Shown one piece after another: positions 1 through 27,872 of a DNA stretch of 29,834 nt. Below the pieces are notes generated by a model. That model searched no databases, was not told the origin of the DNA, and saw only the letters and a program-made list of their open reading frames with translations. Numbering within the stretch: position 1 is the first letter of the stretch; the number at the start of each line of letters is the position of its first letter. Source of the stretch: Catajapyx aquilonaris. Its lineage: Eukaryota. The stretch lies in NCBI GenBank assembly GCA_000934665.2, contig KZ538252.1, positions 62,001-91,834 of the forward strand, given 5' to 3'. The position numbers and the translations under genes were made by a program.

Positions 1-410
1 TGATTATTGTTGTATGATGCAGCCTCAGACTCTCCACCATTTCATTTTCGAGTGTCCAGTTTTCAATGGGCCCAGGGAGCGTTACCTAACAGACTTGCCC
101 CATTCCCCTCCAGATCGCTTGCTATGGTCCTTCGCAAATATAACAAAGGATCAGGCCTTCAATGTTTTTTTCTTTTTTTAAACGGCCCTCCGTATACAAG
201 AATTATGTCAAAATTGATTATTGGATAATATATTTCATGTATTTTGGTATGGCTTGCTGTGCACGGTAATATTGATGACAATGCTATTTGTATGTAGGGA
301 GCAGGATTCCCCCAAAGACCCCGCAAGGGGTGGCACGGGGTAATTGGAAAAAAAAAAAGGCATACAGTAACTGTTCATTGCAAGCTGTTCTCATCCCAAA
401 ATTTTTCCAG

Positions 411-1119
411 ATTGACAGCCATGAAAGTAGCCCAAGTGTGGAAGGAGTTGAGAAACCAACGTCTGGCAGTAAGAAAAAGGGTGCCCCAGCCTCCGTCACA
501 CCGGCAGTGGAGAAGGACCCTGAGTTCTTCGATCGCATAGCTGACGAAGCAAAAGCGGCTGTGCGCCAAGAGAAGGAACGTGAGGAGAAGAAGGAGGCGA
601 CCAGGCGGAGGGACAAGTACATCCCTGAGCTGATCAAGATGAATCGTTTCGAGGAGGAGCTCAAGGCCAAGGAGGAAGAGTGCAGGTTTCTAAGGAAGGA
701 GGTGGAGAAGCTCCGAGTAGACTTGCAAAATGTCAAAACTAGGAACAAAAAGCTCTGCAACATTCTGGCACAGGGAGAGAGTGAGTCTGCCCTTTCGAGG
801 ATCTCCCCATAATTTCTAACATTGTCCGGGATGCTAATGCCGTTTCGTTTATTTCTGATTCAGTGCGAGACAAGGCTGAAGTAATCGTGGAGATGGAGAG
901 GTTAAGGAAGGTGAAAGACGAACTGACTGAGGAGGTAAGCAGTCTCTCCGGCCAGCTAGAACAGGAGCGGTCAAAGGTCAGCAACCTCACATCAGAGCTC
1001 AAGAAGAATCAAGTAAGCACACGTTCGTTACTTCTCACAGGGAATTAATATCGGACAGCTGTTATACCAAGTGCATCTTTCCGCAGGGCAAGAAGAAGAA
1101 CAACTCTTCAAACGACTGA
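411..1119 (+). CDS. GKAP1: G kinase-anchoring protein 1, last three coding exons (5' part lies upstream of the window)
   Basis: Exons 411-780, 864-1012, 1087-1119 joined by GT-AG introns give ...VKTRNKKLCNILAQGEMRDKAEVIVEMERLRKVKDELTEEVSSLSGQLEQERSKVSNLTSELKKNQGKKKNNSSND*. This matches the remembered GKAP1 C-terminal coiled coil (VKARN...GEMKDKAEIL...LEQERSKV). Confidence 0.88.
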
Positions 1120-2043: not shown

Positions 2044-4701
2044 TTACACAGCATAGATTGAGTCGATGATGTCTGCAAATTTCTTTTCCACGATGTGTCT
2101 TCGTAGCTTGAAAGTAGGACCTGCAATGGTGGCGTATCATACACTGTGCATGTAGTATCTAACAGCGGACAGATTGTGTTAAAATGAGAACTCACTTAGT
2201 TCACCGTCAGCCATGCTGAGATCTTTGGGCAAAATGGCCCACTTCTGCACTTTCTGCGCACTTGATATGGCGTTTTTATTGACCTTGTTTATACCCTCTT
2301 GAATGGCAGCCGTCACCTGTTGCCAAAAGATACTGCCAGTTAGCAGCATGAGATGAACGGACATGTACACTCACCTTTGGGTCTTGATTCTGTAGTAGTT
2401 CCGTAATTGTTTTGGCCGATGCGCCGATACTCTGCATCCATGCTTGAACCCCATCACTTAGGGTGTCTTTGGTCTCATCAGGGCCGGGATTAATCTTAGT
2501 CTGCAATGAACATTGATAACAGAAGTGTTCAAGTATTGCAGCACTTGACTTACATTGAGGGCCAAAAGGACGCTGAGGAATTTCTTCTTGTCACCAATCA
2601 GGACAACCTGGCTCAAACATGGAAGCTCTTTCTTGATGGACAGTTCAATCAGAGGTGCTGGAATGTTCTCTCCACCAGCAGTGATCAGAATCTCCTTGAT
2701 CCGGCCCGTTATTGTCAAGTAGCCGAAATCGTCCAACTTTGCGACATCCCCAGAGTGCAGATATCCGTCGTCATCCAGTGTGTCCTTGGTTGCCTCTTCG
2801 TTGTTCAGGTATCCCATGAAGACATTACGACCCCAAACACACATCTGCCCAGTTGATTTAATGTTAATGAATTACCGCTCACAAGCACGTTGAAGCTAGT
2901 ACTGACCTCTCCATTTCCGTCACTGTCCGGTTGATCAATCTTGACTTTGACGCCAAGTATTGGCTTTCCGACTGAACCCATTCGAAACAGCTCCTTATTC
3001 GCACATATGCAGGGTCCGCTTGACTCGCTCATCCCGAAAGTCTGCCGATTGCAAATCATTAATTTATAATCATTTGCACATGACATGTATTTTTACCTCC
3101 ATTAGGGGCATATCGAGACTGGCGAAATGTTGCATGACCTCCTTCGAAAGAGGGGCAGCACCGGTTGCTAGTAACGCCCGATCCAGTCCAATTTCCTGCT
3201 TAATTTTTTGCAAAATGAGCCAGCTGGCCAGTCCATAACCAAACGGTGTTGTCTCATTGCTGTGTTGAACAGGATAAATTTGTACCAGTTGACTACATAG
3301 TGTATGCTGTATGTTACGTACCCGCTCATTTTCCTCTGAGTGTTCTCCCATCCCAATCCTTTGGCCCAGTTGAGCAGTATTCTCTGGATGGTCGAAGCCG
3401 ACTGTTCCCTTTCGGTCATCTTTTCATATATTTTCTCCCATATGCGTGGCACTCCTAGGAAGAAGGTGGGACGTACCTCACGCAAGGTCGTCAACAAACT
3501 GCCCTGTAAAATAACATGGCATTGTTGTAACAAACTAACTGTAGTACACAGTTTCAGCTTACCTTGAGGGCATCTTTGGCTGCAAAGTACACTGCGGCAC
3601 CATTATAAATAGGAAGGTAGATATCTGCAAACTATAAGAAAGCACGATTATTTACAAATAATCATGGAGAGGATCAGCCCTCACCTGAGCAGCAATGTGG
3701 CTGAGAGGAAGGTAGCTGATGATGACCTGCTCCTGATCGCTTGTGATTCCATGATGGTGACTGAAAGATTCGCTCACTGCGGTCAGGTTGTCATGACTTA
3801 ACATCACTGCTTTGGGCAGACCTGTGGTTCCCGACTGTAAGAAAGAGTGGTCACCATAATGCTGGACACAACCTGAACGTTGTCGGACGTACAGTGTAAA
3901 CCAGCACGCAGCACTGATTGACCGCAATTTGCTTCAAGCGAGAGTCCACTAGTGAGTCCGGCTGCTGCAACCCTATCTCCATCAGTTGGCTCCACTGAAA
4001 TTGGTGATAAGTCCGTTTGCACTTTGCACAGCTCAAGGTAAGGTTACGTGTCAACTTACGCTGTAAACCCCTTCCACCGTTGGCTCCCCAGCGTACTGTA
4101 TAATAGCCTTCAGATTTGGAAGCTTGGACTTGAGCGGAATGATCTTGTCCAACTGCTTCTGGTCCTCAACCAGGATGATCTTGGTGTCACTGTTGTCTAA
4201 GCAGTGTAAGCATGCGTCTGAGGTGTTGGTTGGGTAAATCCCATACGCAATTCCTCTGCAATTTTGGTAATTAAATGTCTGTTTTCAGATATATCCGCAT
4301 AGGACTTACCCTGCAAAGATGGCTCCCATGTCCGCTATAAACCACTCGGGACTGTTGGCCCCCAGAATGGCCACAGCGTCCAGCCTCTCAAGTCCCAAGT
4401 GGACAAAAGCCTTAGCGCATGTCCTCACATCCTTCAAGTACTGGGTGTAATTCCACTTGACCCAATCGCCATCTCGTTGGACAGCCATGGCCAATCTGTC
4501 TGGATACTTCTCCGTGGTTTGTATCAGAGTTGTTGGGACAGACACGCACTTGGGATTGTCCGAATCGGACCGGATTTTGACTGCACCATCTCTGGTCCAT
4601 GCTCGTAGGGATTCAGCAGGGATTAGACGATCAGGACCATTGTCGCTGATATCCTGTACCTGAGGGACCTCCTCACTTGGGATCTCCTGGTTGTTCATCA
4701 T
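2044..4701 (-). CDS. ACSBG: Long/very-long-chain fatty-acid--CoA ligase, bubblegum (ACSBG) family, paralog A, ~667 aa
   Basis: 12 exons: 4310-4701, 4060-4255, 3893-3994, 3685-3834, 3563-3631, 3322-3503, 3097-3259, 2907-3041, 2554-2844, 2375-2500, 2196-2316, 2044-2120. They total 2004 nt, in frame, all GT-AG. Motifs: [67 protein letters not shown]. Confidence 0.93.
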
Positions 4702-5150
4702 TCTGAAAATCACTGCTTCCTATCCAGTGGTTACAGTTGAAAGAGGGGCACACACAATCGGTAGTCCCTTGCTACCTTCTTTTATCATGATCGCTTATCA
4801 CCAGCCGATGGAGATTCCCAGGGAACCATGGTACCCATCTCACTCATTGTGCCCACACACTGGGCACGTTTGAGATAAGATAGTTTCATCTTATCCTGTT
4901 GTCCGCTGGCCATGACCCACATTATGTGACACTTATTAATTAATAAACAAAATCCAGTCAGTTTCTGTCAAGATTGTTGAATTTCCATAGAAACATTGTA
5001 ATGAGCAAGTTTTTTTGATTCTGACTGCTTGCGGATACATCTTTAGTGTCTGTTCCGGACTGTGAAACAGGAGCTTTTCTGTAAGTTCTGAAGCCCCAAT
5101 CACTGCTGTTCTTCGGTAATGATGTGAACCCTTTGCAGCAAAATCGAGAG

Positions 5151-5827
5151 ATGTCGGGATGTTCGTGCCGTGACATTCCAGTCAATCAGGACAGCTTCAG
5201 CATCATTGACCAGGAGTTCAACAACATGCATGAGCTGTTTGAGGACCACATGAAAAAGATGCATGAGGAAATGGTACGTTTCATGTCCACAGCCATGGAG
5301 TGCTGCGAACCCTTGTCGCTTGATAGTAGCAGTGACAGCTGCTGCGATGATGGCTGCATCACTGAGCCGTCATCGGCCATGGCACCACGAAAGTTAGTGT
5401 TGCATGTAATATAATCATAGATACTCTTCATGACTAACAATATAGTTCCTTTAGCACTCCCACCAACAATGGTCTGGGGTTTCCATGCCCCCATCTGAAC
5501 ACCGTGGACTTTCCATCCATCATTCAGGAAGACGCAGGAGAAAAGAAGCTGAAGCTGCGGTTTGACCTGAGCGAGTACTCGCAAGAGGAGATTGCCGTCA
5601 AAGCAGAGGACAACCTGATCGTGATACGTGCCAAGAAGGACAAGAAGACGGAGAACAAATCAACACATAAAGAGTTCCACTACCAGTTCACACTTCCTGA
5701 AGGGGTCGATCCGGGTGCGGTCAGCTCCTCACTCTCCACGGATGGAGTCCTGACTGTCGAGGCTACTTTCTCCATAACAGGCATGGACAACCTTGCCATC
5801 GCTCAAAATTGTACCTGTGAATTCTAA
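5151..5827 (+). CDS. Small heat-shock protein (alpha-crystallin domain), Hsp21.4/CG14207-like, Cys-rich, ~204 aa
   Basis: Exons 5151-5392 and 5455-5827 (an in-frame alternative acceptor would start at 5446); likely 5'UTR intron 5081-5138. N-terminus RDIPVNQDSFSIIDQEFNNMHELFEDHMKKMHEEM resembles arthropod Hsp21.4. Crystallin domain: LKLRFDLSEYSQEEIAVK...FTLPEGVDPGAVSSSLSTDGVLTVEA. ATTAAA at 5835-5840. Confidence 0.9.
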
Positions 5828-5902
5828 TCTATGAATTAAACCAGCGGTTTTTCCCAAACCAGTTTTACTCTCAAAACAGTAAGTCCGACTCTCAGACAAG
5901 TA

Positions 5903-6243
5903 CAGTGCTGGACATAATAGCCGTCGCTGAATGTTTTTTTCCCGTCGGCGACGGCGCTGCGTAACCTGGCAACCCCATCCGGCGGGCCAATTCAAACATC
6001 AGCCCATGGAGAGCGCTTCCATTGTTGCCACTGTTTACAAATCGAGTGAGTGACGCGGACGACCCAGCGACGGGTCTCTTCTGCCTGCGCACTCACTCAC
6101 TCGATTTGTAAACAGTGGCAACAATGGAAGCGCTCTCCATGGGCTGAGGTTTGAATTGGCCCGCCGGACAGGGTTTCCAGGTAACGCCGTCGCCGCAGCC
6201 GCCGGAAAAAAACATTCAGCGACGGCTAATATGTCCAGCACTG
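5903..6243. mobile_element. Tc1/mariner-type MITE with ~150-bp inverted arms
   Basis: Starts CAGTGCTGGACATA and ends TATGTCCAGCACTG, flanked by TA at 5901-5902 and 6244-6245. The arms are nearly complementary over most of the element. Confidence 0.88.
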
Positions 6244-6509
6244 TACCGGTATGTTATCAGTAACAAATATTGCAATAGAAATTACATAAGCGATAGTAGA
6301 GATATGTGCCACACTACATAGTACTATTTGTTTACCTGCAAAAGAATTTATCAAGTTGAAAGGTCAACTCGTACAAACTTGTCAGAGCACTCTCCGAAAA
6401 TAGCAATCCCCCCCCCATTCAAACCAACATTATGAAACCTTTTGCGAGGCAGTGCGCACAACCTGACCTGAAGGCACAGAGGTATTGCATCATAACAACC
6501 TTAACGACC

Positions 6510-9289
6510 TTAGTCCGGGTAGAAGGAATCAATCATCTGAGCATACTTGCTCATCACCTTGCTTCTCTTCACCTTCATTGTTGGTCCTAAAATAGGTTTG
6601 GTTTTAGATGATTGATAGTACTGGGTGTGGTATACAACACTTACCTAATTCGCCACCGGGTATTGAGAGATCCCTGGGCAGGATGGCCCACTTCTTGATT
6701 CTCTGAGGGTTGGACGTCGCGTTTTGATTGGCCCTGTCTATTCCGCTCTGGATCCCGAGATACACCTGTGAACATACCGTACTTGCAATAAGCAGATCAA
6801 CCTGTATCCACCTGATCTGGCACCTTCTCATCCTTGTCCCTCAGTATCTGAGACAGTGTGGTGGCCTGGCTCCCCACCTCCCTGCACCAGTTCAAAGCCA
6901 TGGGTTCCAGCTGATCCATAGGTTCACCTGTGGCCGGATCCATCTCGGTCTGCAAATGTACCTGTCACTACCCCGCACCATTCTTGTTCAACTCATGCCG
7001 AATCATGCCTTACCCGGAGTGTCAGAAGAGCTGATATGAACTTCTTCCTATCGCCTAGAAGCACCGCATGATGAACACAGGGCAGCTGTGCTTTGACCTG
7101 GTTCTCAATCAGAACAGGAGGTATGTTCTCTCCTCCTGCTGTGATGATCAGCTCCTGCAGTGACCACATTGCCGTTGAAAGAAAGTGGTGTGACACCCAT
7201 CATGAATCGGTCATACCTTGATCCGTCCTGTGATGTGCAGATACCCATCAGCATCCGTCTTGCCCACATCCCCTGAATGAAGCCATCCATCTGCGTCAAT
7301 GGCCTCTGCCGTCTTGTCAGGCATGGCCATGTACCCCATGAAGATGTTGCGTCCCGACATGCATATCTGAAATCACAAACTTCATATCTTCAACAGGAAC
7401 CTTTGTGAGCAGAGTCCTGACCTCTCCATCTCCACTAGCATCCGGCTGATGGATCCTGATCTGACATCCTGGCATGGGTCTCCCGACACTCCCAAGACGG
7501 AACTCCGCTGTCTTGGACAGGCAGTGAGGACCGCAGCACTCGCTCATACCGAATGTCTCCAGGATGGGTATGTCCAGTCGGGCGAAGAACTCCAGTGTCT
7601 CCCAGGCCACAGGAGCTGCACCAGAAGCACAGGCCATCAGTCTGTCGAACCCAAGGGCTTGACGCACCTTCTTGAAGACCAGAGCGTTGGCAATCACATA
7701 ACCCAACGGAACACGGGTGTCGCTGTAACAACCTTTTGTTGTAAGACCGAATCTCTTTGTAACTACAATGGACTTACCCTTCCATCAACCGGCAGACGTG
7801 CTCCCAACCACATCCTTTGGCCCATTGAACCAGCATCTTCTTCAACCCTTTGTTCTTCTTCCCTGCTTCTTGCATCTTCTCCACAATCTTCTCCCAGACT
7901 CGAGGCACTCCGAGGAGCCACATAGGACGTGCTTCCTTCAGAGTTCCCAACAATGTGCCCTAAATGGAAACAATGAAGATTTCTAAAGGATTCGTTGAAG
8001 ATTTGTGGAGTGTGTGATGAAGACTTATGGAGAACTTGTGGACTACGATGGATTTGAACTAATCCAGAGAGGTTTTGTAGATGATTTGTGAATAATTAAT
8101 TGATGTACTCTATTTTTTTTTATAGATTGAGGATTTTTGTGGATGATCAGGACACGATGTGTGATTGACCCTACTGACCCTGAGTGCATCCTTATCTCCG
8201 AAGTACACCGTGGATTTGGCATTCATCATGCAAAATACGTCCACCAGCTGTGCAGCTACGTGACTCAGAGGGAGGTAACTGACGTATGTCTGGTTCGGAA
8301 TGTTCATCTCCATCCGGTCAGCCACAGCATACCCTGTCCAGGTCAGGTTGTCGTGGTTCAGCATCGCACCTTTTGGAGGACCCGTCGTTCCTGACTGTAA
8401 TAAGTTCATCAGGAAGTGTTGTGGATGGATGTACTATTGTCAGGTATTACCGTGTACACAATGGCGCAGCACTGGTTGATCACGATTCGCTTCAGACGAT
8501 CGTTCAGGATGTCATCAGATTGCTGCGTACCAAGGTACATCAGCTGGGACCACTGTGAAGAGACATTGTCAACAAAGAAAATGTTCCCACCCAAGACGAA
8601 AGTGGTGTTACCGTGAGGACGTTGTCTTCCTGTGGCTTTCCTGTGTACTGCACTATGGCCTTCAAGTACGGCAACTTGGATTTGACCTGCAGAATCTTCA
8701 TGAGTTGCTCGTGGTCCTCCACCACAGCAATGTTGGCTCGACTGTCCTCCAGGCAGTAGTAGCATGCTTCTGCAGAGTTGGTGGTGTACACCCCCAAAGC
8801 AATACCACCTGCGTAGATGGCAGCCACATCCGAGAAGAACCATTCTGGAGCATTGGTACCGATGATGGCCACCGAGTGGTTCCTCTCCAGACCCAGATGG
8901 ATGAAGGCCTTGGCGCAGGTCCTGACCTCCCTCAGGTACTGGGCATAAGTCCACTCGACCCAAGCACCGTCCCGTTTGACCATCAGTGCAGGGTGGTTCG
9001 GCACCTCCTGTGCTGTCCTCTCCAGAAGGGAAGGTACGGAGATGGGTTTACGAGACGCTGCTCCGTTGTCCTCCAGACGAAGAGTCACTGCTCCTTCGGG
9101 ATGGCAAGTCCATCGTGTGCTTGATGGCAACAGTTGGTCTGGTCCTGCAACAAGTACACATGCATACACCTGTTGCATGGTACACACAATCGAAATATTG
9201 TTGAACAACAACTGACCATCCAGATATTCCCGATCCGTCCTCTTCCACTCCAGACCAGGGTCATCCTCCAACCTCTTCAACTTGTCCAT
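6510..9289 (-). CDS. ACSBG: Long/very-long-chain fatty-acid--CoA ligase, bubblegum (ACSBG) family, paralog B, ~673 aa
   Basis: 11 exons: 9217-9289, 8612-9144, 8451-8552, 8179-8394, 7778-7959, 7422-7722, 7217-7366, 7014-7154, 6824-6949, 6645-6765, 6510-6586. They total 2022 nt, in frame. Motifs: [72 protein letters not shown]. The start codon is tentative because an acceptor-like site lies just upstream at ~9296. Confidence 0.92.
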
Positions 9290-9570
9290 TCTTTCCTGGA
9301 AGGTTCCCCGCTCACTGTCAACACTATATGTGAGGGTGAGGGTAAAAATCCCCCCGAGACCCAATTAGAATAGAGCATAGATTATTATAATTGAAGGAGG
9401 GGGCTGTTGAGAGCAAGGTTGACTCATGATGGGGGTCAATATGGAGGAATTGATTAAAATGGGGTAACAATGCGGGACACGTTCAGAATGACATGTGACT
9501 AAGTAGGGAGGGGTCGTGGGAAGCAGGCAGGGTTTTGATCGTAGCATATTCTGAGACATGATATGGTATA

Positions 9571-10609
9571 ACGGTGTCCTGATTATCCGAACACTGGGAA
9601 AATAATTTTCTTCGATATGCCATCACCCCATAAGAAAATAATTATATTACGGGAGTTTGGATAATCGAGAAAATTATTTTCCTAGTGTTACGATAATTTA
9701 GTTTAAATTTTTTTTCGATATGTGTTCCCAATGTTCCCATTTTTAAAAAAAATAATTTTCTCAATTATTCGAACTCCCATAAGAAAATAATTTTCTCTAT
9801 TATCCGAACTCCCATAAGCCATATGAAAATAATATTTCCAATTATCCGAACACTAGGAAAATAATTCTCGTTATTCGACCACTATAAGAAAATAATTTTT
9901 CCGACTATCCGACCACCCAAAATAGTTTTCTCGATTATCCGAACACTATATAGAAAAGTAATTTTCTCGATTATGTTAACTCTCCATAAGAAAATAAATT
10001 TATCCTGATTATCCGACCACTATAGAAAAATAATTTTCTCGATTATGTTAACTCTCCATAAGAAAATACAGTAATTTATCATGATTATCCGAACACTACG
10101 GAAATAATTATCTGGATTATCCGAACACTAGGAAAAATAATTACCGATTATCCGAACACTATAGAAAAATAATTTTCTCGATTATTTTAACTCCCATACG
10201 AAAATAATTTATCCTGATTATCCGAACACTAGGGAAATAAATTATCTGGATTATCCGAACACTAGGGAAAATAATAACCGATTATCCGAACACTGTAGAA
10301 AAATAATTTTCTCGATTATGTTAACTCCCATATGAAAATAATTTATCCTGATTATCCGAACACTACGGAAATAATTATCTGGATTATCCGAACACTAGGG
10401 AAAATCATGACCGATTATTCGAACACTATAGGAAAATAATTTTCTTGATTATTCGAGCTCCAATTACAAAATAATTTTTCCCGATTACACGAACACTACA
10501 AAAACTATTTTCTCGATTACCTGAACTTCCCATAAGAAAAATAATTTTCCCACATATCCGACCACACAACTCGATTATCCGAACAGTCGGATAATCGAGA
10601 CTCCACCGG
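9571..10609. repeat. ~1-kb tandem array of GATTATCCGAACACTA..GAAAATAATT units ending in a pogo/Tigger-like terminal repeat
   Basis: More than a dozen ATTATCCGA-type units about 27-35 bp apart, with a ~134-bp higher-order period (TCTGGATTATCC at 10111, 10245, 10378). The right end reads TA-CCGGTGGAGTCTCGATTATCCGA on the minus strand. Confidence 0.8.
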
Positions 10610-12363: not shown

Positions 12364-13905
12364 ATGGGTGTGACAGAGTTCAGCATCACCTTTGACAACA
12401 ATCCAGACGGGGTGTACCCCGCTGGGAGCACCGTCTCAGGGGCGGTGCAGATTGTGGTGGACGTGCCTGTCACACACAGAGGTCCGGGCCACTCTCGTTT
12501 GGTCCTTTGTCGCTTATTGATTAATCGGTGTGCATCTTGCAGGGATTACGCTGAAGCTGCTGGGTGAGGCCAGGGTGAGGTGGACCATGAGGGTCCACCA
12601 GTACCACAGCGCCATTTTCAGCGAGGCTGAGACGTACTTTGACAAGGACTTCCCCTTGGTGGCCGCAGGTGCGCACGCTTCAACCAGTCGGGATGGTTGC
12701 ATGTCTGCGTATACACTTGAGTGGTTTATAATTTGCGGCATTTAGATCAGTTTCAACTTATGTTGCCCACATACACATTTTAATATTGTTTTATTATTTT
12801 AAGCATCAACGTGAGGGCCAGCATCCGAGCGGCACGTTCTTCTGGGAAACACCAACATAATACATGAAAGAGCATGGTTGGTTTTGTTGCCTATTTTATT
12901 TCCCTGTATTGTCACTTCTCTTATTTTATGGCCATGCAGTTTGTGTGTGTAGAGTAGCACGTGAAATGCTGTTGACTTGTCTCGCTGGACCATGTAGTTT
13001 TGCCCTGATTTGTTACCAACAATGTCTTTCCAGAGGAGGATTCGGAATCATTAGAACTTCCACCAGGAACTCACAGCTTTCCGTTCTCCCACGACCTTCC
13101 GTCATCCCTCCCTGCGTCGTTTGAAGGTACCTCAGGAAATGTGCGCTACTCCGCCTCTGCCAGGATAATTCGTGCTACTTGGGTGCCTGATATAACGGCC
13201 ACGAAAATGTTTACCATCACCACGTCTCTTGACCTGAACCGTGATACGCAGGCCAACCGAGCGGAGGTGTCAGAAAAGAGCAAGGAGGACCTCCGTTACT
13301 CGTGCTGCCACACTGGACCAGTGTCGCTCAAGGGTGAGTACAAATAAGTAATGGATACAACCACTTTAAAGTGCCTGTTCATTCCAGCCAGCCTACCTCG
13401 CACTGGCTACGTCCCAGGGGAGCAGATGAAGATCGTGGCAGAAGTTGAAAACCTGACCACCACCGAAGTGAAGCTGCTTGCCATACTGCGTCAGGTGGCT
13501 GAATTCCGTGCCACCACAAACGGCTGCACAGGCGAGCGGGCAGTGACTAAGGCGGGAGTCAATCGAGTGGCCAGGGCGACTGGTGGGACTATCGCTCCTG
13601 GACAGACACAGGGATGGGAAGGGGAGGCCATCAGCGTACCGTTGATACCACCCACTGATCTCGGGGGAGAATGCACCATTATTGGGGTCAGGTACGAGCT
13701 AAAGGTCAGTTAAATTTTGTAAGTCAAGTCACTCTCATTGTAACCTGCATTATTTTGTACTAAGGTAATTGCAAAACCTGTTGGACTCGCATCAAAAGTG
13801 AAGGTGCGCCTTCCCGTAACAATAGGAAGTGTTGCGTTGCTTGATGCGCCGGAAGTGCAGGACACCCCAGCAGCTGATGATGCAACAATGCAAGATCGGC
13901 TGTAA
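12364..13905 (+). CDS. Arrestin domain-containing protein (alpha-arrestin/ARRDC-like), ~333 aa
   Basis: Exons 12364-12481, 12543-12668, 13034-13333, 13388-13704, 13765-13905 total 1002 nt, in frame. Motifs: GVYPAGSTVSGAV, GEARVRW, LPPGTHSFPF..LPSSLPASFEGTSGNVRY, RTGYVPGE, IIGVRYELKV, LPVTIGSV. Likely 5'UTR intron 12282-12347. Confidence 0.9.
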
Positions 13906-15571: not shown

Positions 15572-15832
15572 ACATTATAATATTTTCCACTCATTTTAAT
15601 ACCGTATCTGCTCATACGGTTCCTACCCACAGATGGCACCACTGTTGAAACAAGCGGCTATTTGTAACAGTTATTTTTTGAATGGCCATGTCCCATCTGG
15701 TGGGCATTACTGAAGCTGATTTAGTCCGCCTCTTTTTCATTGTCAGTTGGTTGCCCTTAAGGTGGGTTCTGTTTCCTATTTGATAAATAGCCAGATGGCC
15801 TGAGTTGCTTTGGCTCCCACAGATTGGCAGGC

Positions 15833-16807
15833 ATGGCGCTGAAGGACCTGTCTGGTTACATGGCATCACGCACCAGGGTCATGGGTCAGGCCATGGCCAT
15901 CAGAAACATGGAGCACAAGGAAGGGATGCTGGGGAAGCTTCAGGAGATCAGGGAAGCACAGGTGGACATGTCCAAGGGGATCCAGAGGACTAGGGAGGCC
16001 ATAGTGCGGATCAACGCTGGGATACCCAAGATGGAGGTACGGCAGGGCTGCATGTGTTTGTTGGAGCGTAATCTCACCTGGTTTTGCTCCCAAAGCGCTT
16101 GCTGGAGAAGATCAGAGCCAGGCGGAAGGTGGTGGATGAGAACGTCCAGCACAGGCTGCCCCAGTTCTTTAAGGAGCATCCGTATCTGGCTGTGAAGGGT
16201 GCTGCGGGTGGATCGGCGCAACTGAAGGAGCCGAGTAAGCGGAATGGGACTGCTGCTGATGGAAACGGTGGAGACAAACCCAGGTCCGCGCCACCCCCGA
16301 TCATACCCAAGATTCAGTACCTCACGTCCAGTGAGTTCGAGCACATTCCATCGTTAGTGTTTCATTCTTGCGATTTGTTGTGCACTACGTATTTTACAAG
16401 TTGATCTCTTGCAGGTATATGGTTGGCCGCATGAAGTTTACGGAGATCAACTTGGCCGTGGAGCAGTTCAACACTGCCTTGCGGATAAAGTATGAGGTAC
16501 TGACGCGGCCCCTGGCTAGCCTGACGAAACAGGAGACTGACAGACGAAAGGCCTACAAGCGGTTGGAGGCAAAGGAACTCAAAGGTACGTTGCCATACCA
16601 TGTCTCTTCCAATCGCCCACCTGCTAATACCAATTGTTTATATTTACAGGCACATCCTTCCTGACACCAGAGGACTTGAAGGGTCACTCATTCTTCAAGC
16701 TTCCTAAGCAAGGGCAGAACATAATAACCATATTGCGTCACTGCAAGCGGGTGAAGGATGTGCGAATACCTACAGTTGGAGTGAGGCATGTGGTCATTAT
16801 TCCTTGA
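15833..16807 (+). CDS. SKA1: Spindle and kinetochore-associated protein 1, ~262 aa
   Basis: Exons 15833-16036, 16096-16352, 16415-16584, 16650-16807 total 789 nt, in frame. N-terminal coiled coil, flexible linker, then LTSSEFEHIPSYMVGRM...KYEVL...ILRHCKRVKDVR, matching the remembered SKA1 microtubule-binding domain. Confidence 0.88.
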
Positions 16808-17880
16808 AATAACTTCATTTGAGCGATGTGATTTTTGTTAGTACTACATCGGATAAAAACAGATGAATTGCACTTCCACGCGAAATTGCCTCTATCTTTT
16901 TGTCCGATGTAGTGCCAGTATATACTGAAGTTATTCTGGCGACTGCGTCTGCTGGTCTAATAATAATGATAATGGGATATGTTGGATGTCCTGGATGCCA
17001 TAAGTGTTCTCAGGAAATGTTTTCATAAAATTTTGAGATTTTGTAGCAGTTATTTGTTATTGTAGCATTTTTATTGCAGCAGCAACCAAGTTAACTTAGA
17101 AGGTCACAGCACCTAGATTCCGCAGAATGGACATGATGGAATATTTTCATGAAGTATTGCTAATTGCGCAGTACTGGTGTCGTACTGGTAGTGCCAAGAG
17201 CTGGTGGCGGTAAAAGAGCAAATCATAGTGATGAAGTAGCAACCAATACAGTGCTTCGATGCACTCTCTTTACAACCTGTCCAGCACTGTACAAGGTGAA
17301 TAGAAAGTTTCTTCCTATGGTGGCTGGATTTTTTTAAAAGCATCGTATATTTATATCAAATATTATATACGCACTTCGCTAATATGGGACACTTACTCTA
17401 CAGAAAACTGGCGACTCCTCCCTGTGCGCCATCTGTTGGCTCGGGGTGAGGTTATCCCCTCAGGCTGCAGCCACTAGTGCATATATCAATGTTTTACTAT
17501 TTAAATTAATTATTTCATAGTGTTTACTTACATGACCCATGCACCAAAAAATCAGAAATAATAAATATTAGGCCTACAGGTTAAGCATCCGCCTCTTTCG
17601 AGTGTTGGCGCTACATGCCACAAAGGGAAACGAAAGGGAAGCTATTTGTTTGGCTCTAATTACGAACGTAAATATCAAGTAAATGTAGGTTATTGTGCAT
17701 AACAATGGATAGGTCAAACACTTCATACTTCTGATAAATTATGTCATGCAACTCATGCCATATCACAGGTAGTTGCTGAACTTGAGTGGAATTGAGTCGT
17801 ACAGGTTTAAAAGAAACTCCAGGGAAGAATTCAACTAACAAGGTTCTAATTATGCTTTACTCAACATGAATGCACCCTAC

Positions 17881-18099
17881 TTTATAATTGATATTTAAGG
17901 AGGTTGGCCCAGCATTGCCTTTCAACCTCCAAGGATAGGGAAGGAAGGAAGCGGCTGTGGCCTATTATACGGAAGCGACCCCGTAATTATCCTAGAAAGA
18001 CTGGAAAACCACAGTCAAGGTTGCCGGCCCCGGGATTCGAACCCAGGACCTCCTGATTAGCAGTCGGACGCCTTATCCACTATGCCAACCTGCTTCGGT
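17881..18099 (-). mobile_element. tRNA-derived SINE, full-length (tail type 1)
   Basis: Minus strand: ACCGAAGCAGGT-TGGCATAGTGG (A box)...CTGCTAA...GGTTCGAATCC (B box), core GGCCACAGCCGCTTCCTTCC, tail hairpin GGAGGTTG..CAACCTCC. Candidate TSD GCACCCTAC at 17872-17880 and 18112-18120. Confidence 0.88.
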
Positions 18100-18849
18100 T
18101 ACCGTACAGCGGCACCCTACAGTGGTGCGCATTAAACTCTCAGATAATTACAATGCATTTAACTCTCATCACACATCTCAAATTCAATTCTTACGATTCA
18201 CTGTGAAACTCTGATATTGTATACTTGTCTCTCCCTTCAAAATAAATGTGAAATTTGGTGTCTAAGTTGTTCGCGACTTACTTCAAAGATAGTTTCACTA
18301 TCATGAACAGTAGATAAAGTGGGCTGGCTTCATGACTGAGGGAGTACTGGAACGTACTCTCGACTTCGGCTTACCGAGTGACTGACTGACCCCCGCGCAT
18401 TTTCTGCTTTTATATTTTTCTGGTAGTCGATACTAAGCCAAGTACAGCCAAGAGGGGCACAATTTTATTAGGTGCTTGTTCTTGACCGTAATAGTTATGC
18501 TGGTAGTCTCGTGCCAAGGATTATTGGTTGGGTGTGTCGTATCAGTTAGCGGCAGATTATCGGTTAGCTGAGGAGTATCGGTTATTAGCCTCCCACAGGT
18601 TTATCATGAAATCCACCCGTTTTTACTGTTGGGGTTTTTCCTTAATTGCTTCTACTTGTGCCGCGGGTAATTGCAAGGGTACTTGCATCTGACAGATAAC
18701 TAATGGCAATTGAGTTGAAACTGCCCTGTTAAATAATAAAATGATCAACAATACTGTGCATGAAAATGTCAAAACTGTCTAGATGAGCAATGTATTTCTT
18801 TTCATGATACATTTTTCAGGACATATCAAATAAATCATTTCATAATATA

Positions 18850-21124
18850 TTAACCTGACTCATTCAGTCCAGGTGAAACATTTGCGTCCTGAAGCCATCT
18901 CCTCACTTGTCGCACAGTAGGAAGGCAAAATAACGTCCTCATATATCTGGAATAGTACAGGTTATCTTCATATGAAATCATTGGAATCAATTTTTCTCAG
19001 TTCCAACCCCTGGCATGCAAGCTACTTCCACCAAAATTTGCACCTCTACTATTTAAAAAACAAAACACAAATATGTAAGTAATAATCGAGTTATTTCAAT
19101 ACTTCATGTCGATTGACTCAATGATCACATAATTCTAAGTGTGAATAATAATATCGATAGCTCTCTTCATTTTACAGCTGACTATCACCTGAAAACAAAA
19201 TGTTCCACTATGAGTACTTGATGCTGCTCACCTGTATGCTCTTGGAGACACATCATGCAAGCCCAAGGCGAAGTTCTTTTCTTTTTCTGTGTACCTTCTA
19301 CCACAAGGTTTTCTTCCTCTCGATGGAAAAAAATCACCTGCCACATACTGATCAGGAATGGCCACATTGCTGATGATTGTGGAAGCTGGAGGATCAGAAG
19401 CTCTACTCTTGACTCCCTTTTTTTCCAGTAAGTTGTTGTCCTGCAACATTTTCCTCAACCGATAATTTTCCTGGCGAAGACCAGCAACTACTCCTTTCAG
19501 CTTGGAAATCTGTTTGCGCGCATTGGAATACTTCTTGTTTTGCTCATCACTCATGGAAAATCTCGCCATCTTGTTTTGCGGTTCCGGTGCTGGTGATACA
19601 TATGGATGTATACCTTCGCTTAAGTTGTCAACAGAATTAGGCAAATCCTCAGAAGGGTCCACATGTGACTTGACTGGAGAAAAGTGTCTTTTTCGTGGAC
19701 TTGGCCTACATTTCTTTACCACATGTCCCTGTGGCAGGTTGACGCTTGGTATGGACCCTTCCTTCAGCCTGTACAGTGAAAGTATATCAGTATCAAAATC
19801 ACTCAACTACTCTCCCTAATTTCTAGCAATTATAATTATTAAGCCTACCCTTGGGATGTCAGTTGGGGATTTCTCAGGTCGCATAGAGCAAAATGGTCTG
19901 AGCAGATTCTGTGGTTGTTGTTCATATAGATGGGGCCAAAGTCTTTGAGCACTGCATCCAGATCTGACCGTTTACACCAATGGACCCATTGCTTGCACCT
20001 GCGTGTAACAGAAAGGGAAGTAATAATAATTCACACCCCATTATCAGCCTATCGGCTCTTTAGGGGGGAAGTTTTGTTTTGCCTGGAACTCTTTGCTTTC
20101 ATTTTACTGCGCTTTTTGGGATAGGATAGGGACGGAAGGAAGCGGCTGTGGCCTGTTAATTACGGAAACAACTCCGGAATTTCGCTGGAGGGACCATGGG
20201 AAACCACAGAAAACCATGGTCAGAGTTGCCGGCCCTGGGATTTGATCCCAGGGCCTCCTGATTAGCAGTCGGACACCATGTCCTCTACTCCAAACTGCTT
20301 CGGTGTGTAACAGAAAGGGAAGTGCGCATATAAACATGGAGCCAAGATAATAATGAATACATTATACAAGGTGATTCATATACGCAGAACTTTACTCATT
20401 CATTTCGCTGTAACTGCCTGACGGAAATTAGTGCACTCGAAAAGATTGAAGTCAATGTGAACTATATAGTTCACATTGACTTTTGCATCAATCTTTTCGA
20501 GTGCACTAATTTCCGTCAGGCAGTTAGAGAAAAATGAATGTAATCACCTGTACAACTTACTACCAAGAGCTCTTGTTCGTAGCCAGCTTTCCGTCCAGTG
20601 ACTGATCGGACCAGGATGGGACCATGATCGGACCCATGTGAAGTAAATATTTCGCGATGTAATGAATGGATTTCAACCAGACATAACTTTTTCGAGACCT
20701 TACAACATTTCCAAGGAGCCGTCAAGCTTTTGGTTTCTTTAAATTCTAATTCTACGTCACAGTTATTGCCAGTGAAAAGGAGCCTTCCCTTGTGGCTTAC
20801 CGGGATTGATGAGACCAAGGTGAAGTAGATATTTAGCGATGTAATGAATGGATTTCAATCAAACGTGACTTTATCGCAACCTTACAACATTTCCAAGGAA
20901 CCGTCACTTTTGGTTTTTGTACTTTATAAATTCTACGTCGACTTTTGCCAGCTTATGGCCCTGCCCGTCTGGCGCTCACCGGACGGAAAGCTGGCTACGT
21001 ATTACCATATTACTTACATGGCCAAATCCTTAGGAAATCGATAAAAGGACCGGGCATCCTTCTGAAGTTTGTAATTCTTGCAATGCTGCATGTCACAAAC
21101 ACCCCCAGCTTTAGGTGGTGCCAT
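18850..21124 (-). CDS. THAP-domain protein derived from a P-element/THAP9-like transposase N-terminus, truncated before the catalytic core (~296 aa)
   Basis: Exons 21018-21124, 19849-19998, 19232-19768, 18850-18946 total 891 nt, in frame, GT-AG. THAP: CDMQHCKN..FYRFPKD..CKQW..CKR..RICSDHF..LKEGSIPS. Then a coiled coil (ARKQISKLKGVVAGLRQENYRLRKML), then GRRYTEKEKNFALGLHDVSPRAYRYMRTLFCLPTVRQVRRWLQDANVSPGLN, typical of P-type transposases. The 3' end is uncertain. Confidence 0.8.
20022..20304 (-). mobile_element. tRNA-derived SINE, full-length (tail type 2), in THAP gene intron 1
   Basis: Same ACCGAAGCAG head and CCACAGCCGCTTCCTTCC core as 17881-18099, with an (ATT)n tail. Perfect 19-bp TSD GTGTAACAGAAAGGGAAGT at 20003-20021 and 20305-20323. 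Confidence 0.9.
20397..20540. mobile_element. ~144-bp palindromic element (MITE-like)
   Basis: CATTCATTT..TAACTGCCTGACGGAAATTAGTGCACTCGAAAAGATTGA...TCAATCTTTTCGAGTGCACTAATTTCCGTCAGGCAGTTA..AAATGAATG, centred on AACTATATAGTT. No clear TSD. Confidence 0.7.
20578..20999. mobile_element. Non-autonomous TIR element with an internal 182-bp-period duplication
   Basis: 24-bp inverted repeats CGTAGCCAGCTTTCCGTCCRGTGA at 20578-20601 and 20976-20999 (1 mismatch). Internal direct repeats begin GTGAAGTARATATTT at 20638 and 20820. Confidence 0.65.
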
Positions 21125-21642
21125 TTTTGCTGAGCTGCGGATTGGCAAATTATTGTTATTATTTAATAAATGTTACGCAATGTTTATTCTAGGCAAGAAA
21201 CCTTCTGCCTCTACTTACAGCGAATGCCACTGTAGCACTTGGCGAAAGGCTCTTAAATATATTTAAAATATATTGATGCGACCATTGCAATCTCTGCTGA
21301 TTCTTTGTTACGTCAGGCGTCCCTCTAATGACACTCTGGCTGGAATGGGGAGTTCTCCAGTAGATACCCTACGGGGGGTCATCATGGTCCTCCGGGGGGT
21401 TTTCCGGGGCTCCTCTTCCAGAGATCCAGACGAATAGCCTTTTGTAGGCCTAGTTTAGGCCGCCTGGTGCTACTGCTCACACCCCGAGCCAACAGATGGC
21501 GCGCAGTGGCGCACGGCGGTGTAGCCCGGTGGCAGGACCAGACATGTCGCGACCTACCGGCCATTATGTAAACTACTACAACAAACTGATAACAATGCCG
21601 GGGGTCACACTTGCTGGGGTAAACAACAGCTTTAGTCCGTAA

Positions 21643-21956
21643 CTAGCTGCGGCACCCGGCGTTGCCCGGGAAGAAATGAATGAAGGGAAAACACCTGCCA
21701 GTACCCCCGTCAACTGTCTGTCTTTCTGTGTGTCGGCCCACCAATGCCATCTGTGGTCCTGCTACTCCGACACCTTCAACCTCTCCTGCCTGTATAACGG
21801 CAACCGTCATTTGCCTGCCATCTGTAGTCAACCCCCAATACCTCCATACTCTCCCGGCCTGGGGATGGAACACAGATGGCAGGCAAATGACTGTTGGCAG
21901 ACGGACAGACGGACAGAGACGACAGACAGACTCACAAACGGCTTTATTTATATAGA
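21643..21956 (-). mobile_element. Non-autonomous Helitron
   Basis: Minus strand begins A^TCTATATAAATAAAG, carries a (CTGT)n-like tract, and ends with the hairpin CCCGGGCAACGCCGGG and CTAG^T. These are canonical TC...CTAG termini in an AT target. Confidence 0.82.
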
Positions 21957-22657
21957 TATCACATTATACATACAGACAATTATGCCTAGGGGACGCTCCC
22001 CCCCCCCCCNCCCCCCCAAACGCGGAATTGAATTCTCCATAATATATAGCCATTATTAAGCGACTTGAAATATTGGCTATAAATTACATGTTACGTAACG
22101 TGGGAGGATATTAAATTTACCGCACTTTAAAACCGACGGTTAATATTCCCAAAATGGGAAGGACTTTGACGCAATGATGGGCGTAGACGTGAGAAAAGGG
22201 ACAACCGACCATTTATTCTCGGGCCAAGGACACGGTTTGAGAACGGTTTTAAAGTGACGAATCCCACGCGTACAAAAAGGCTTTTAAAATGGGTACGAAA
22301 TTGTTACGTAACTGGTGGCAAAGACATCTGTACGTAGCCCTGTCCTATATATATAGGACGCTAGGTATATACACAATGTGTAACTAGATCAGCCTTACAC
22401 TGTACATACTGATGAAAAGCTTCCCTAAGGGCATATTTTTATAACAATGCACATGCCCAAAAATGGCGGCTGTTTCCACTTGCCTAGATTACAGCTCAAA
22501 ATAATACCTCTCGCCTAGGCACTCTTTTGAATTAAAATATTCGAAAAGCTGCTTATGTCAGCTTGTATCGTAAAACATGATTAAATTTGATTAATCATGA
22601 TTTGTGCTACAAGATCTTAATACTTGCAAAGTGTGCACCGGAAGCGGCTCTGTAGGG

Positions 22658-23889: not shown

Positions 23890-24665
23890 TGTGGTTCCAG
23901 TGACATCTGGTGGCGAGGAAATATTGAGAGTGCAGAATTTTGCACCAATATGAAGTTTTGGCAATTTTCTCATGACTGTGTGGTCCGATTGGGTTCATAT
24001 CACGTATGTAGGTACATGCTATTTGTACATACCTAATGATGTACTATTTTGGATATTCTGACTGAAAGAAACCGAGTTTATTGCTAAAAGAAACCGAACT
24101 TGCAGCACATCTGATGAGGAAAATAGGGCAGAATTTTGGACCAATATGAAATTTTGGCAATTTTCTCATGACTGCGTGGTCCGTCTGGGTTCAGATCATG
24201 TATCTAGGTACATGCTACTTGTACATACCGAAGAAGGCTGAAAGAAACCGAACTTGCAGCACATCTGATGAGAAAAATAGGGCAGAATTTTGCTCCAAAA
24301 TAAAATTTCTCATGACTGCGTGGTCCGTTTGGGTTCAGATCATGTACGTAGGTACATGCTAGTTGTACATACGTAACGGTGTACTATTTTTCCGATTCTG
24401 ACTAAAAGAAACAGAGTTTTGCAGCACACTTTGCACCCGTTTCTGGAGTGATATCTGGTGGCGAGTCCGCTGCAGAATTTTGGCCAACATTTTTGCACCA
24501 AAACGAATCGAATTTTGGTCATTTTTGCATGACTGCGTGGTCCGTTGGGGGTCAGATCAGGTACTTAGGTACATGCTACTTGTACGGACCTAATGGTATG
24601 CAATTTTGTCGATTCTGACTGAAAGAAACCGAGTTTTATGTTGTTTCGTCCCACACTTTGCAGCC
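23890..24665. repeat. Degenerate satellite-like tandem repeat, 4 units of ~145-215 bp
   Basis: CATGACTGYGTGGTCCG..GGG..CA.ATCA....AGGTACATGCTA at 23971, 24167, 24311 and 24528. Confidence 0.85.
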
Positions 24666-25572: not shown

Positions 25573-25970
25573 CCCCCCCCCCTACGAAAGTGTACACGGA
25601 CTTCCCTTAGAATCACTCCTCGCCTGGTCATACGCATCGATGGACGTACTCCCGATGAATGGTTCCCTCGGTGGGTGGCACGGGGTCACGGGGTCAAATC
25701 CGAACCCCCGCATATTTCGCACGTCGCAGGGGAGGTATTTCGCAAACTGGAAAGTCCGGGTAATTCGTTATAGACATAACCTAGGGTCCGGCTTGGTGAA
25801 GGACTAAATGGCGTGTCGTCTTAACGTCTTTATTTATATCCAGACCGGTCGCTTTGTTTGCGACTTGTTTACCTGAAGATTAAAGCTTCTGACATGATTG
25901 AGACGTTAGGCCGACACTAGTGACGCTCTGGCGGTCGGTTCAGAACTAAGGGTTCGGAAGAGCTAGCGCG

Positions 25971-26150
25971 AGGTACGGCTGGGCCACTGGGAAGTTCGGT
26001 AGAGTCACCACCGGGAGGTATGGCAGAGCCACCGCCGGGGGGCACGGCCGAGCCACCGCCGGGAGGTACGGCCGAGCCACCGGGAGGTACGGCCGAGCCA
26101 CCGCCGGGAGGCACGGCAGAGCCACCGGGAGGTACGGCAGAGCCACCCCG
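25971..26150. repeat. GC-rich 21/24-bp minisatellite
   Basis: Units CCACC(GCC)GGGAGGTACGGC(A/C)GAG repeated about 6-7 times. Confidence 0.85.
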
Positions 26151-27100: not shown

Positions 27101-27149
27101 TGTATTAGTTCTACGGTAGTATATTATGTGTTATAGTATGTCATATTAG

Positions 27150-27650
27150 CTACATTATATTTATAGTGATATTATCTATTCATATTAATAAATAATAATA
27201 TCACTATAACTATAATGTAGATAAATAGGTTACTAGTTAATATTATTATTTAATATTAACACAATAACAGTAGTAACATTCATATTAATTAATATTATTA
27301 GTTATGGTTTTATAGTTATAGTTATGGGTTTATTATGGTTTCATTATAGTTGTAGTTATGGTTTTATTATGGTTTCATTATAGTTATAATTATGATTATG
27401 ACCTTATAGTCATAGTTATGATTTTATTACAGTAACTATAATGAAATCCTAACTATAACTATGACAAAATCATAACTATAACTATAACAAAATCATAACT
27501 AATAATATTAATTAATATGAATGTTACTAATGTTATTGTGTTAATATTAAATAATAATAACATTAACTAGCAACCTATTTATCTACATTATATTTATAGT
27601 GATATTACAGTTATAGTTATGTTATAGTTATGGTTTTATTATAGCTAGTT
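27150..27650. repeat. AT-rich nested inverted repeats with (TAGTTA)n-like simple repeats
   Basis: ~27196-27325 is the near reverse complement of ~27472-27608; a shorter palindrome spans ~27150-27219. Confidence 0.8.
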
Positions 27651-27872
27651 AAATTGTTATACAGTATTAGATACTGTATACATTAGTTATGTTATATTAG
27701 ATATCATACACATAAGTTTATAAAGTATATTTAGCCACACATTTATTTAGTTACATGTTAGTATACACTAGTTAATATTATCTTGGTTGTAGTATATGCT
27801 ACATTAGTGTTTATGATTGTATTATAGTTATAATTGTGAGTTGACACTAGTTGTATTAGTCATAGTACATGC

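Follow-up and report, generated by a model that had tools for sequence, protein, structure and literature searches.

The transposase of the Drosophila melanogaster P element (DmTNP) comprises a THAP domain, a coiled-coil segment, an HTH (helix-turn-helix), an RNase H core with a GTP-binding insertion and a C-terminal domain; binding to internal sites is the task of the THAP domain, and the HTH makes contact with the terminal inverted repeat (TIR) in its inner half (PMC7776569). In KP, a shortened P element, nucleotides 809-2561 are deleted and the product has 207 residues, 199 of them from transposase (PMC4938643). This product binds P elements, represses their transposition and apparently their expression (PMC4938643, PMC10299278), and is cited as a self-encoded repressor (PMC8700633). 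Putative P repressors have been recognised by an interrupted translation with the DNA-binding domain present (PMC12393704), and recurrent domestication of P and THAP sequences is established (PMC3698922, PMC8700633). Anopheles P elements have TIRs of 27-31 bp and target-site duplications (TSDs) of 8 bp (PMC1562414). The locus described here lies in a stretch of 29,834 nucleotides from Catajapyx aquilonaris (contig KZ538252.1, positions 62,001 to 91,834 of the forward strand), called the window, whose numbering is used for all positions. It is a 4.1-kb P-superfamily (THAP9-like) DNA transposon, internally deleted, at 17420-21508 of the minus strand, and contains a spliced gene of 296 codons. 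The preferred reading, given a probability of about 45%, is that this would be an old, stranded KP-type gene retained as a repressor of P-type ends.

The limits of the element are two inverted repeats, which a preliminary description made from the letters of this DNA had overlooked:

21480 to 21508, minus strand: 5' TIR, 29 bp, beginning with CA
17420 to 17448, plus strand: 3' TIR, 29 bp

The two arms agree in 26 of 27 core positions (21480-21506 against 17422-17448) and in 27 of 29 when the outer bases are included, the 3' arm departing from the 5' arm in two bases, one internal and the other second from the end. The pair has a score of 49, where none of 200 shuffles exceeded 31, its 23-nt core was identified at the two ends and nowhere else in the window, and its 29 bp fall within the length of about 27-31 bp of P-superfamily TIRs. 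Because these repeats bracket the gene, the locus is an internally deleted P-type element and not a neogene devoid of repeats. Short outer TIRs with a TSD were also considered and gave six weak AT-rich chance pairs only, and a TIR pattern search of genome contigs and of viral contigs returned 0 matches. Further inside, a 10-bp motif at 21443-21452 (minus) has an inverted copy at 17569-17578, a candidate for a sub-terminal repeat or THAP binding site and a hint only, as a match this long occurred in 10.5% of 1000 shuffles.

The gene comprises five exons, all on the minus strand:

21219 to 21450 at least, minus strand: non-coding first exon, its 5' limit being the end of a contig and not a mapped start
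21135 to 21218, minus strand: intron of the 5' untranslated region (UTR), 84 nt, GTAAGT..CAG, placed by splice sites and contig arithmetic
21018 to 21134, minus strand: coding exon 1 (coding part 21124-21018, ATG at 21124), first half of the THAP domain (C10, C15)
19849 to 19998, minus strand: coding exon 2, second half of the THAP domain (W40, C68, H71, F72)
19232 to 19768, minus strand: coding exon 3, with the end of the THAP domain, RPSPRKR, a linker, a leucine zipper and the start of the HTH
18850 to 18946, minus strand: last coding exon, with the end of the HTH, a PG motif and TAA

Joined, the four coding exons give 891 nt, that is 296 codons and the TAA, with zero internal stops and with GT donors and AG acceptors at every coding-exon boundary. 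The four phase-compatible exons with an open frame proposed in the preliminary description are thereby borne out.

For the message, assembled contigs of four of the five sequencing runs that contain this DNA were compared with the window, none of the five being annotated as RNA. Runs X1-X3 are of one DNA sample, probably the source of the window and so not independent, and retain the introns. Run X5 belongs to a different study and is RNA-like, judging by the introns skipped here and in the neighbouring gene SKA1, two of whose introns are skipped by one contig. Contig 28 of this run (1,120 nt, depth 14.9) matches the gene with zero mismatched letters at its positions 85-620 (window 19232-19767) and 889-1120 (window 21219-21450), which is 0 differences in the 768 nt compared letter by letter. 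The five-exon model (18863-18946, 19232-19768, 19849-19998, 21018-21134 and 21219-21450) adds up to exactly 1,120 nt, and for 6 of 6 bins that contain an exon its predicted depth is off by at most 0.09. Coverage of 18946-18863 follows by this arithmetic, and retention of intron 3 is incompatible with it. All three junctions predicted earlier (21018/19998, 19849/19768 and 19232/18946) fit the contig, which also backs two additions to that model, the 5'-UTR intron and the non-coding exon. The exon sequence is identical in two samples.

Such contigs carry no information on strand, transcript start or expression level. The X5 contig starts 58 nt inside the 5' end of the element, consistent with a promoter inside the element, and the 5' UTR holds two short upstream open reading frames (ORFs) of 25 and 10 codons. 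An AATAAA is found at 18469 (minus), 3' of the stop codon; run X5 has zero cover at 18170-18536 and 17436-17802, which was not used as evidence on the 3' end.

The product of 296 residues presents the hallmarks of the P superfamily: a C2CH THAP finger, a coiled coil and then a P-type HTH. The ligands of the finger are C10, C15, C68 and H71. With exons scanned singly against Pfam, exon 1 holds one part of the THAP domain (PF05485) with 14.5 bits and exon 2 the other with 22.2 bits, and the end of exon 3 matches the HTH (PF12017) with 16.6 bits, all pieces being under the curated cut-off when taken alone; the Atlas THAP score for the exon 2 region is 0.92. Once spliced, the HTH (residues 241-294) reaches 41.4 bits with a profile built from five fetched P-type transposases, where 500 shuffles gave 6.3 bits at most, and spans positions 2-57 of the 82 in the profile, the last of which is just beyond the first catalytic aspartate. 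The basic RPSPRKR occupies residues 107-113 and the leucine zipper residues 173-194, with I173, V180, N187 and L194 in a positions and L176, L183 and L190 in d positions, a canonical heptad with Asn in an a position. Modelled as a parallel homodimer, the zipper scored 0.59 (best of 3 controls 0.00, pLDDT, the predicted local distance difference test, about 81) and the runs agreed on 100% of contacts. The mark for this score was reached by 21 of 30 solved pairs (animal pairs 7 of 16) and by 0 of 23 single chains, and coiled coils may reach it through likeness to solved coiled coils. The finger, basic motif, coiled coil and HTH segment read earlier from the letters are all recovered by these results, the two domains by profile as well.

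Relatives of the protein are few and distant. The best, P0001, shares 30% identity over 286 columns (E 1e-27) and was the sole match of exon 3 in a library of 1.84 billion proteins; it is a single-member Logan cluster from a 1,768-nt contig and may be a fragment. Residues 6-286 of P0002, a 910-residue THAP9-type transposase with all core domains including PF22824 (THAP9_C), share 27% identity (E 1e-18). No candidate was confirmed for exon 3 among longer proteins (0 of 562) or those of similar length (0 of 25), nor among its pattern matches in genome contigs (0 of 56) and viral contigs (0 of 6). P0002 was confirmed in 3 of 73 metagenome contigs (L001-L003) and in 0 of 3 viral contigs; L001-L003 have no TIR comparable to the 29-bp repeat. 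In L001, an open stretch of 815 residues of THAP9-type transposase (3941-6388) lies between two inverted copies of what is apparently a dispersed repeat. That this short architecture is not rare is suggested by 69 proteins, mostly from arthropods and about 274 residues long, which form an Atlas cluster with THAP and HTH (score 0.82, a lead only, some members maybe fragments).

The catalytic part of the transposase was not identified. No RNase H core with its DDE triad, no GTP-binding insertion and no C-terminal domain was detected in the window: with tblastn, P0002 matches exons 3 and 4 only; Pfam scans, with stops as X, of three minus-strand frames of two 3' stretches gave no core match (0 of 6); and our own core and C-terminus profiles reached at best 2.2 bits over six frames, being of low power as they were built from 3-5 close THAP9-type sequences. 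The DDE domain thus stays as absent from the window as the preliminary description had found it, and the further exons with an intact core that would have spoken against that description were looked for here and none was found. The last residue of the protein is the equivalent of V209 of DmTNP, 21 residues before the catalytic D230, an equivalence obtained by chaining the alignment to P0002 with that of P0002 and 6p5a. With translation stopped at this point and the THAP domain intact in the spliced X5 contig, the gene may be counted as a putative P repressor. Two readings made by eye, of 17570-17880 as a possible decayed transposase C-terminus and of the bases just after the stop as a possible decayed RNase H start, were unsupported by tblastn, Pfam and profiles and were dropped.

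The non-coding parts of the element have received four insertions, three of them in coding intron 1:

20578 to 20999: insertion A, coding intron 1, a non-autonomous DNA element whose inverted ends measure 24 bp and in which about 135 bp are duplicated internally
about 20367 to 20551 (approximate limits): insertion B, coding intron 1, a TA-flanked hairpin, miniature inverted-repeat transposable element (MITE)
20022 to 20304, minus strand: insertion C, coding intron 1, a short interspersed nuclear element (SINE)
17881 to 18111, minus strand: fourth insertion, a SINE derived from transfer RNA (tRNA), with a 9-nt target duplication (18120-18112 and 17880-17872)
17449 to 18849, minus strand: rest of the deleted element, in which no transposase homology was detected

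The three insertions of intron 1 agree with the earlier claim of three insertions beside a frame with no stop or shift, and are now delimited. The arms of insertion B (20397-20461 and 20476-20540) are 88% complementary and, by the rule for TA flanks, it is presumably Tc1/mariner-like; microRNA matches in Rfam at 20411-20526 are under gathering scores and correspond to this hairpin. Insertion C has a 19-nt target duplication (20323-20305 and 20021-20003) of the polypyrimidine tract, and because the tract was copied a working acceptor of intron 1 survives. This SINE is 78% alike to the one at 17932-18099 and has very high depth in the DNA runs. The fourth insertion contains a Rfam tRNA match of 34.4 bits at 18022-18093, and the joint without it (17871-18112) occurs in DNA contigs.

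The latter contigs point to sister copies. Two kinds were identified, one free of the SINE and one also lacking 18122-18794; in the second, 18795 is joined directly to 17880, with 52 nt on the shorter side of the joint, in 3 of 3 DNA runs of one sample. A sister contig shows at least 26 differences in 235 nt of the 3' end, about 11% among the differences listed. The bins of exons 2-4 have a depth of 31-43 in the DNA runs, equal to a single contig and similar to SKA1 (30-37), and 17436-17802 has 607-760, where the depth of a contig does not give a copy number, and contigs can reveal that a sequence is present but not that it is absent. This is read as a multi-copy non-autonomous family sharing the 3' end of the element and a piece of about 80 nt beside exon 4. 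The locus itself appears single and, from its single-contig depth and lack of a TSD, immobile.

The proposed history and function are as follows. The region coding for the RNase H core, GTP-binding insertion and C-terminal domain would have been lost by internal deletion, as in KP, and the element later stranded beside the 3' end of SKA1. A promoter within the element would drive the five-exon message, whose product may enter the nucleus via the basic motif and, according to the model, dimerise through the leucine zipper. The dimer would bind P-type ends without cutting, with THAP at internal sites and HTH at the inner half of the inverted repeat. It could thus occupy its own promoter and related ends, including those of the non-autonomous sister copies that share the 3' end, and block active transposase or damp transcription. 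Selection for such repressor activity is the reason proposed for the open frame amid decayed non-coding parts.

Several points weigh against this reading. No TSD was found at or near the repeat ends by strict and loose scans, and none credible out to 23400 and 16830; the missing 7-9-bp duplication is read as decay or rearrangement of the flank, and because of it the locus is filed as a derivative and not as an intact P element. The searches of proteins and contigs gave no orthologue, and only relatives of about 30% identity. In the contigs compared, exons 2-4 gain no appreciable depth from sequences that are at least 85% alike, and no close autonomous partner was seen. The 5' sub-terminal region (21106-21472) is also at single-contig depth and the sister family was not seen there; one possible cause is a 5' end of that family below the 85% threshold. 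With respect to the message, X5 lacks RNA annotation and its RNA nature rests on the skipped introns of two genes, the direct comparison covers 2 of the 5 pieces of the contig with the other exons placed by length and depth, and the contig stops at 18863, 10 nt short of the stop codon. None of the 4 insertions is in the coding sequence, which has a P of 0.24. Simulations of neutral frame survival (4,000 each, under two assumed indel rates) favour constraint, the frame surviving in 3.5-9% of cases at 3% decay, 0.2-1.2% at 5.5% and at most 0.05% at 11%; this figure is soft, however, the divergence of sister copies need not date the immobilisation, and the locus was picked for being intact.

The rival that survives best is a neutral relic: the same deleted element, whose own promoter still gives a transcript that is spliced, with a 5' half not yet hit and a protein, if made, without selected effect. 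It is in keeping with ends still recognisable at 27 of 29 positions, which suggest that the insertion is not very ancient, with the lack of an orthologue in the searches, with the two upstream ORFs, which could limit translation, and with the 3.5-9% of simulations that keep the frame at 3% decay. It has to account for four insertions and about 11% sister divergence in non-coding parts beside an intact frame of 891 nt, for four introns that still work, for the intact ligands of the C2CH finger, heptads of the zipper and HTH, and for the 0.2-1.2% survival at 5.5% decay. This explanation is judged unlikely, although a serious contender. The alternative named in the preliminary description, a recently broken element with its 5' half undecayed, becomes less likely for the same reasons (decayed non-coding parts, four insertions, intact frame) and is kept under this rival.

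A co-opted host factor of transcription or chromatin, in which the THAP-zipper-HTH dimer regulates host genes, in the manner proposed for THAP proteins and the Drosophila P neogenes, and no longer transposons, is improbable. The coding exons showed no close autonomous partner, a missing TSD and an altered terminal base make the locus look immobile, P and THAP domestication is recurrent (PMC3698922), and the arthropod-rich Atlas cluster of 69 proteins, a lead only at 0.82, has the same THAP and HTH content. On the other hand, transcription begins inside the element, the inverted repeats are both still there, neither a host exon nor a domain has been newly acquired and conservation across species was not seen in the orthologue searches. 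Of the two terms of the earlier proposal, 'KP-like repressor or domesticated neogene', the first stands as anatomy (spliced, THAP, zipper and HTH, no core, a break at most about 10 residues from that of KP) and the second is weakened because the gene lies between its own inverted repeats and the transcript starts inside. An intermediate between the two, a KP-sized repressor midway to domestication, fixed and immobile with its own ends still around it, which the host would keep as a protein that holds a P-MITE family in check once the autonomous master was lost, is also doubtful, a degree more so than full co-option.

The last two rivals are very improbable. A longer isoform would use a possible weak donor at 18854 (AG/GTTAAT), which overlaps the stop codon near the end of the RNA-like contig at 18863, and splice to exons with a catalytic core or another domain, but no core homology was detected on either strand of the window (tblastn, Pfam, profiles at best 2.2 bits), the longest in-frame extension over 128 AG acceptors scanned from this donor down to 16831 is 64 residues, and 1.4 kb past the stop the element ends at its 3' inverted repeat, with SKA1 converging from the opposite strand. 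Coincidental repeats, that is two unrelated copies of a short GC-rich motif (the core resembles what we take to be a CTCF-type site) or dispersed repeat ends around a P-derived gene that is older, has no ends of its own and is followed by a MITE, would suit the missing TSD, the 5' sub-terminal region unseen in sister contigs and the inverted pair around the P-type gene of L001, which looked like two dispersed-repeat copies and not TIRs, but the matching stretch is short, has sharp limits, lies symmetrically on both sides of the gene and begins with CA, and the joins of 18795 to 17880 tie the coding part to the 3' repeat.

The element is convergent with SKA1 (15791-16823, plus; PF07160 37.2 bits), which is spliced in X5, and about 600 nt separate its last covered base (16823) from the 3' inverted repeat. 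On the other side, a very high-depth repeat with an internal hairpin is found at 21640-21960, 130 nt upstream of the 5' inverted repeat. From the ORF list, the window also comprises what we take to be tandem long-chain acyl-CoA synthetase (bubblegum-like) genes at 2276-4719 and 7105-9364 (minus), presumably with a small heat-shock (alpha-crystallin-like) gene between them at 5085-5827 (plus), and exons assumed to be arrestin-domain-like at 13009-13713 (plus). Exons of a coiled-coil protein are found at 279-1015 (plus), the first ORF having no significant Pfam match. Complex arrays of tandem and inverted repeats occupy 9570-10600, 23930-24640, 25950-26150 and 27140-27860; the arrays of the window include one of 133-bp period and an AT-rich foldback. 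The window has 99 N, one at 22010 and a run from 26526 (assembly gap), and none inside the element.

The case of KP shows that an element family can be repressed by a shortened form of its own transposase, and that of the Drosophila P neogenes that fixation of truncated P genes can occur. A KP-sized gene that is old, single-copy and expressed, and that has TIRs and a family of sister MITEs, would stand midway between the two. If the reading of a repressor midway to domestication is true, truncating a P transposase directly behind its HTH would be one way in which host regulators arise outside Diptera, where a literature search, mostly without subscription papers, turned up no KP-like gene; the locus allows a test, outside that order, of whether hosts retain transposon-encoded repressors after an invasion ends. 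If neutral, it is an ordinary expressed relic.

In the montium and obscura groups of Drosophila, stationary P neogenes encode a 66-kDa-like product of about 560 residues; they are reported to be conserved across species and are not known to carry terminal repeats. Unlike them, the gene described here has a KP-sized product and keeps its inverted repeats. What both share is a truncated, transcribed, repressor-like DNA-binding gene derived from P and placed outside an active family (PMC8434751). Vertebrate THAP9 and the zebrafish P-like elements are comparable in that the closest relatives fetched are THAP9-type transposases and that internally deleted copies with inverted repeats are described in zebrafish too (PMC7776569). 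However, vertebrate THAP9 is given in the same source as full length, catalytically active and without TIRs, and the zebrafish elements as having 13-bp TIRs and 8-bp TSDs, unlike the 29-bp repeat with no TSD found here.

The multi-copy 3' segment looks like a P-MITE-type family, comparable to the P-MITEs of Anopheles gambiae (PMC1562414) and to BuT5 (PMC3698922), which are multi-copy non-autonomous derivatives with the ends of a P master and TIRs of 27-31 bp. The masters described in those sources are full-length, with perfect TSDs, whereas the only coding copy seen here is itself deleted.

One of the closest systems is KP of Drosophila melanogaster, described as young, multi-copy, mobilisable in trans, with 8-bp TSDs and coexisting with full-length elements of the same sequence. 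The locus of Catajapyx aquilonaris differs in its single copy, the absence of a TSD, two TIR mismatches, four nested insertions, no close coding partner seen, five exons and a THAP9-like sequence, and its repression is putative. Like KP, it is an internally deleted P element with both inverted repeats (PMC4938643, PMC10299278, PMC7776569), has a spliced message for the THAP, zipper and HTH region, and is cut before the RNase H core, at the equivalent of residue 209 here and at residue 199 in KP (PMC4938643).

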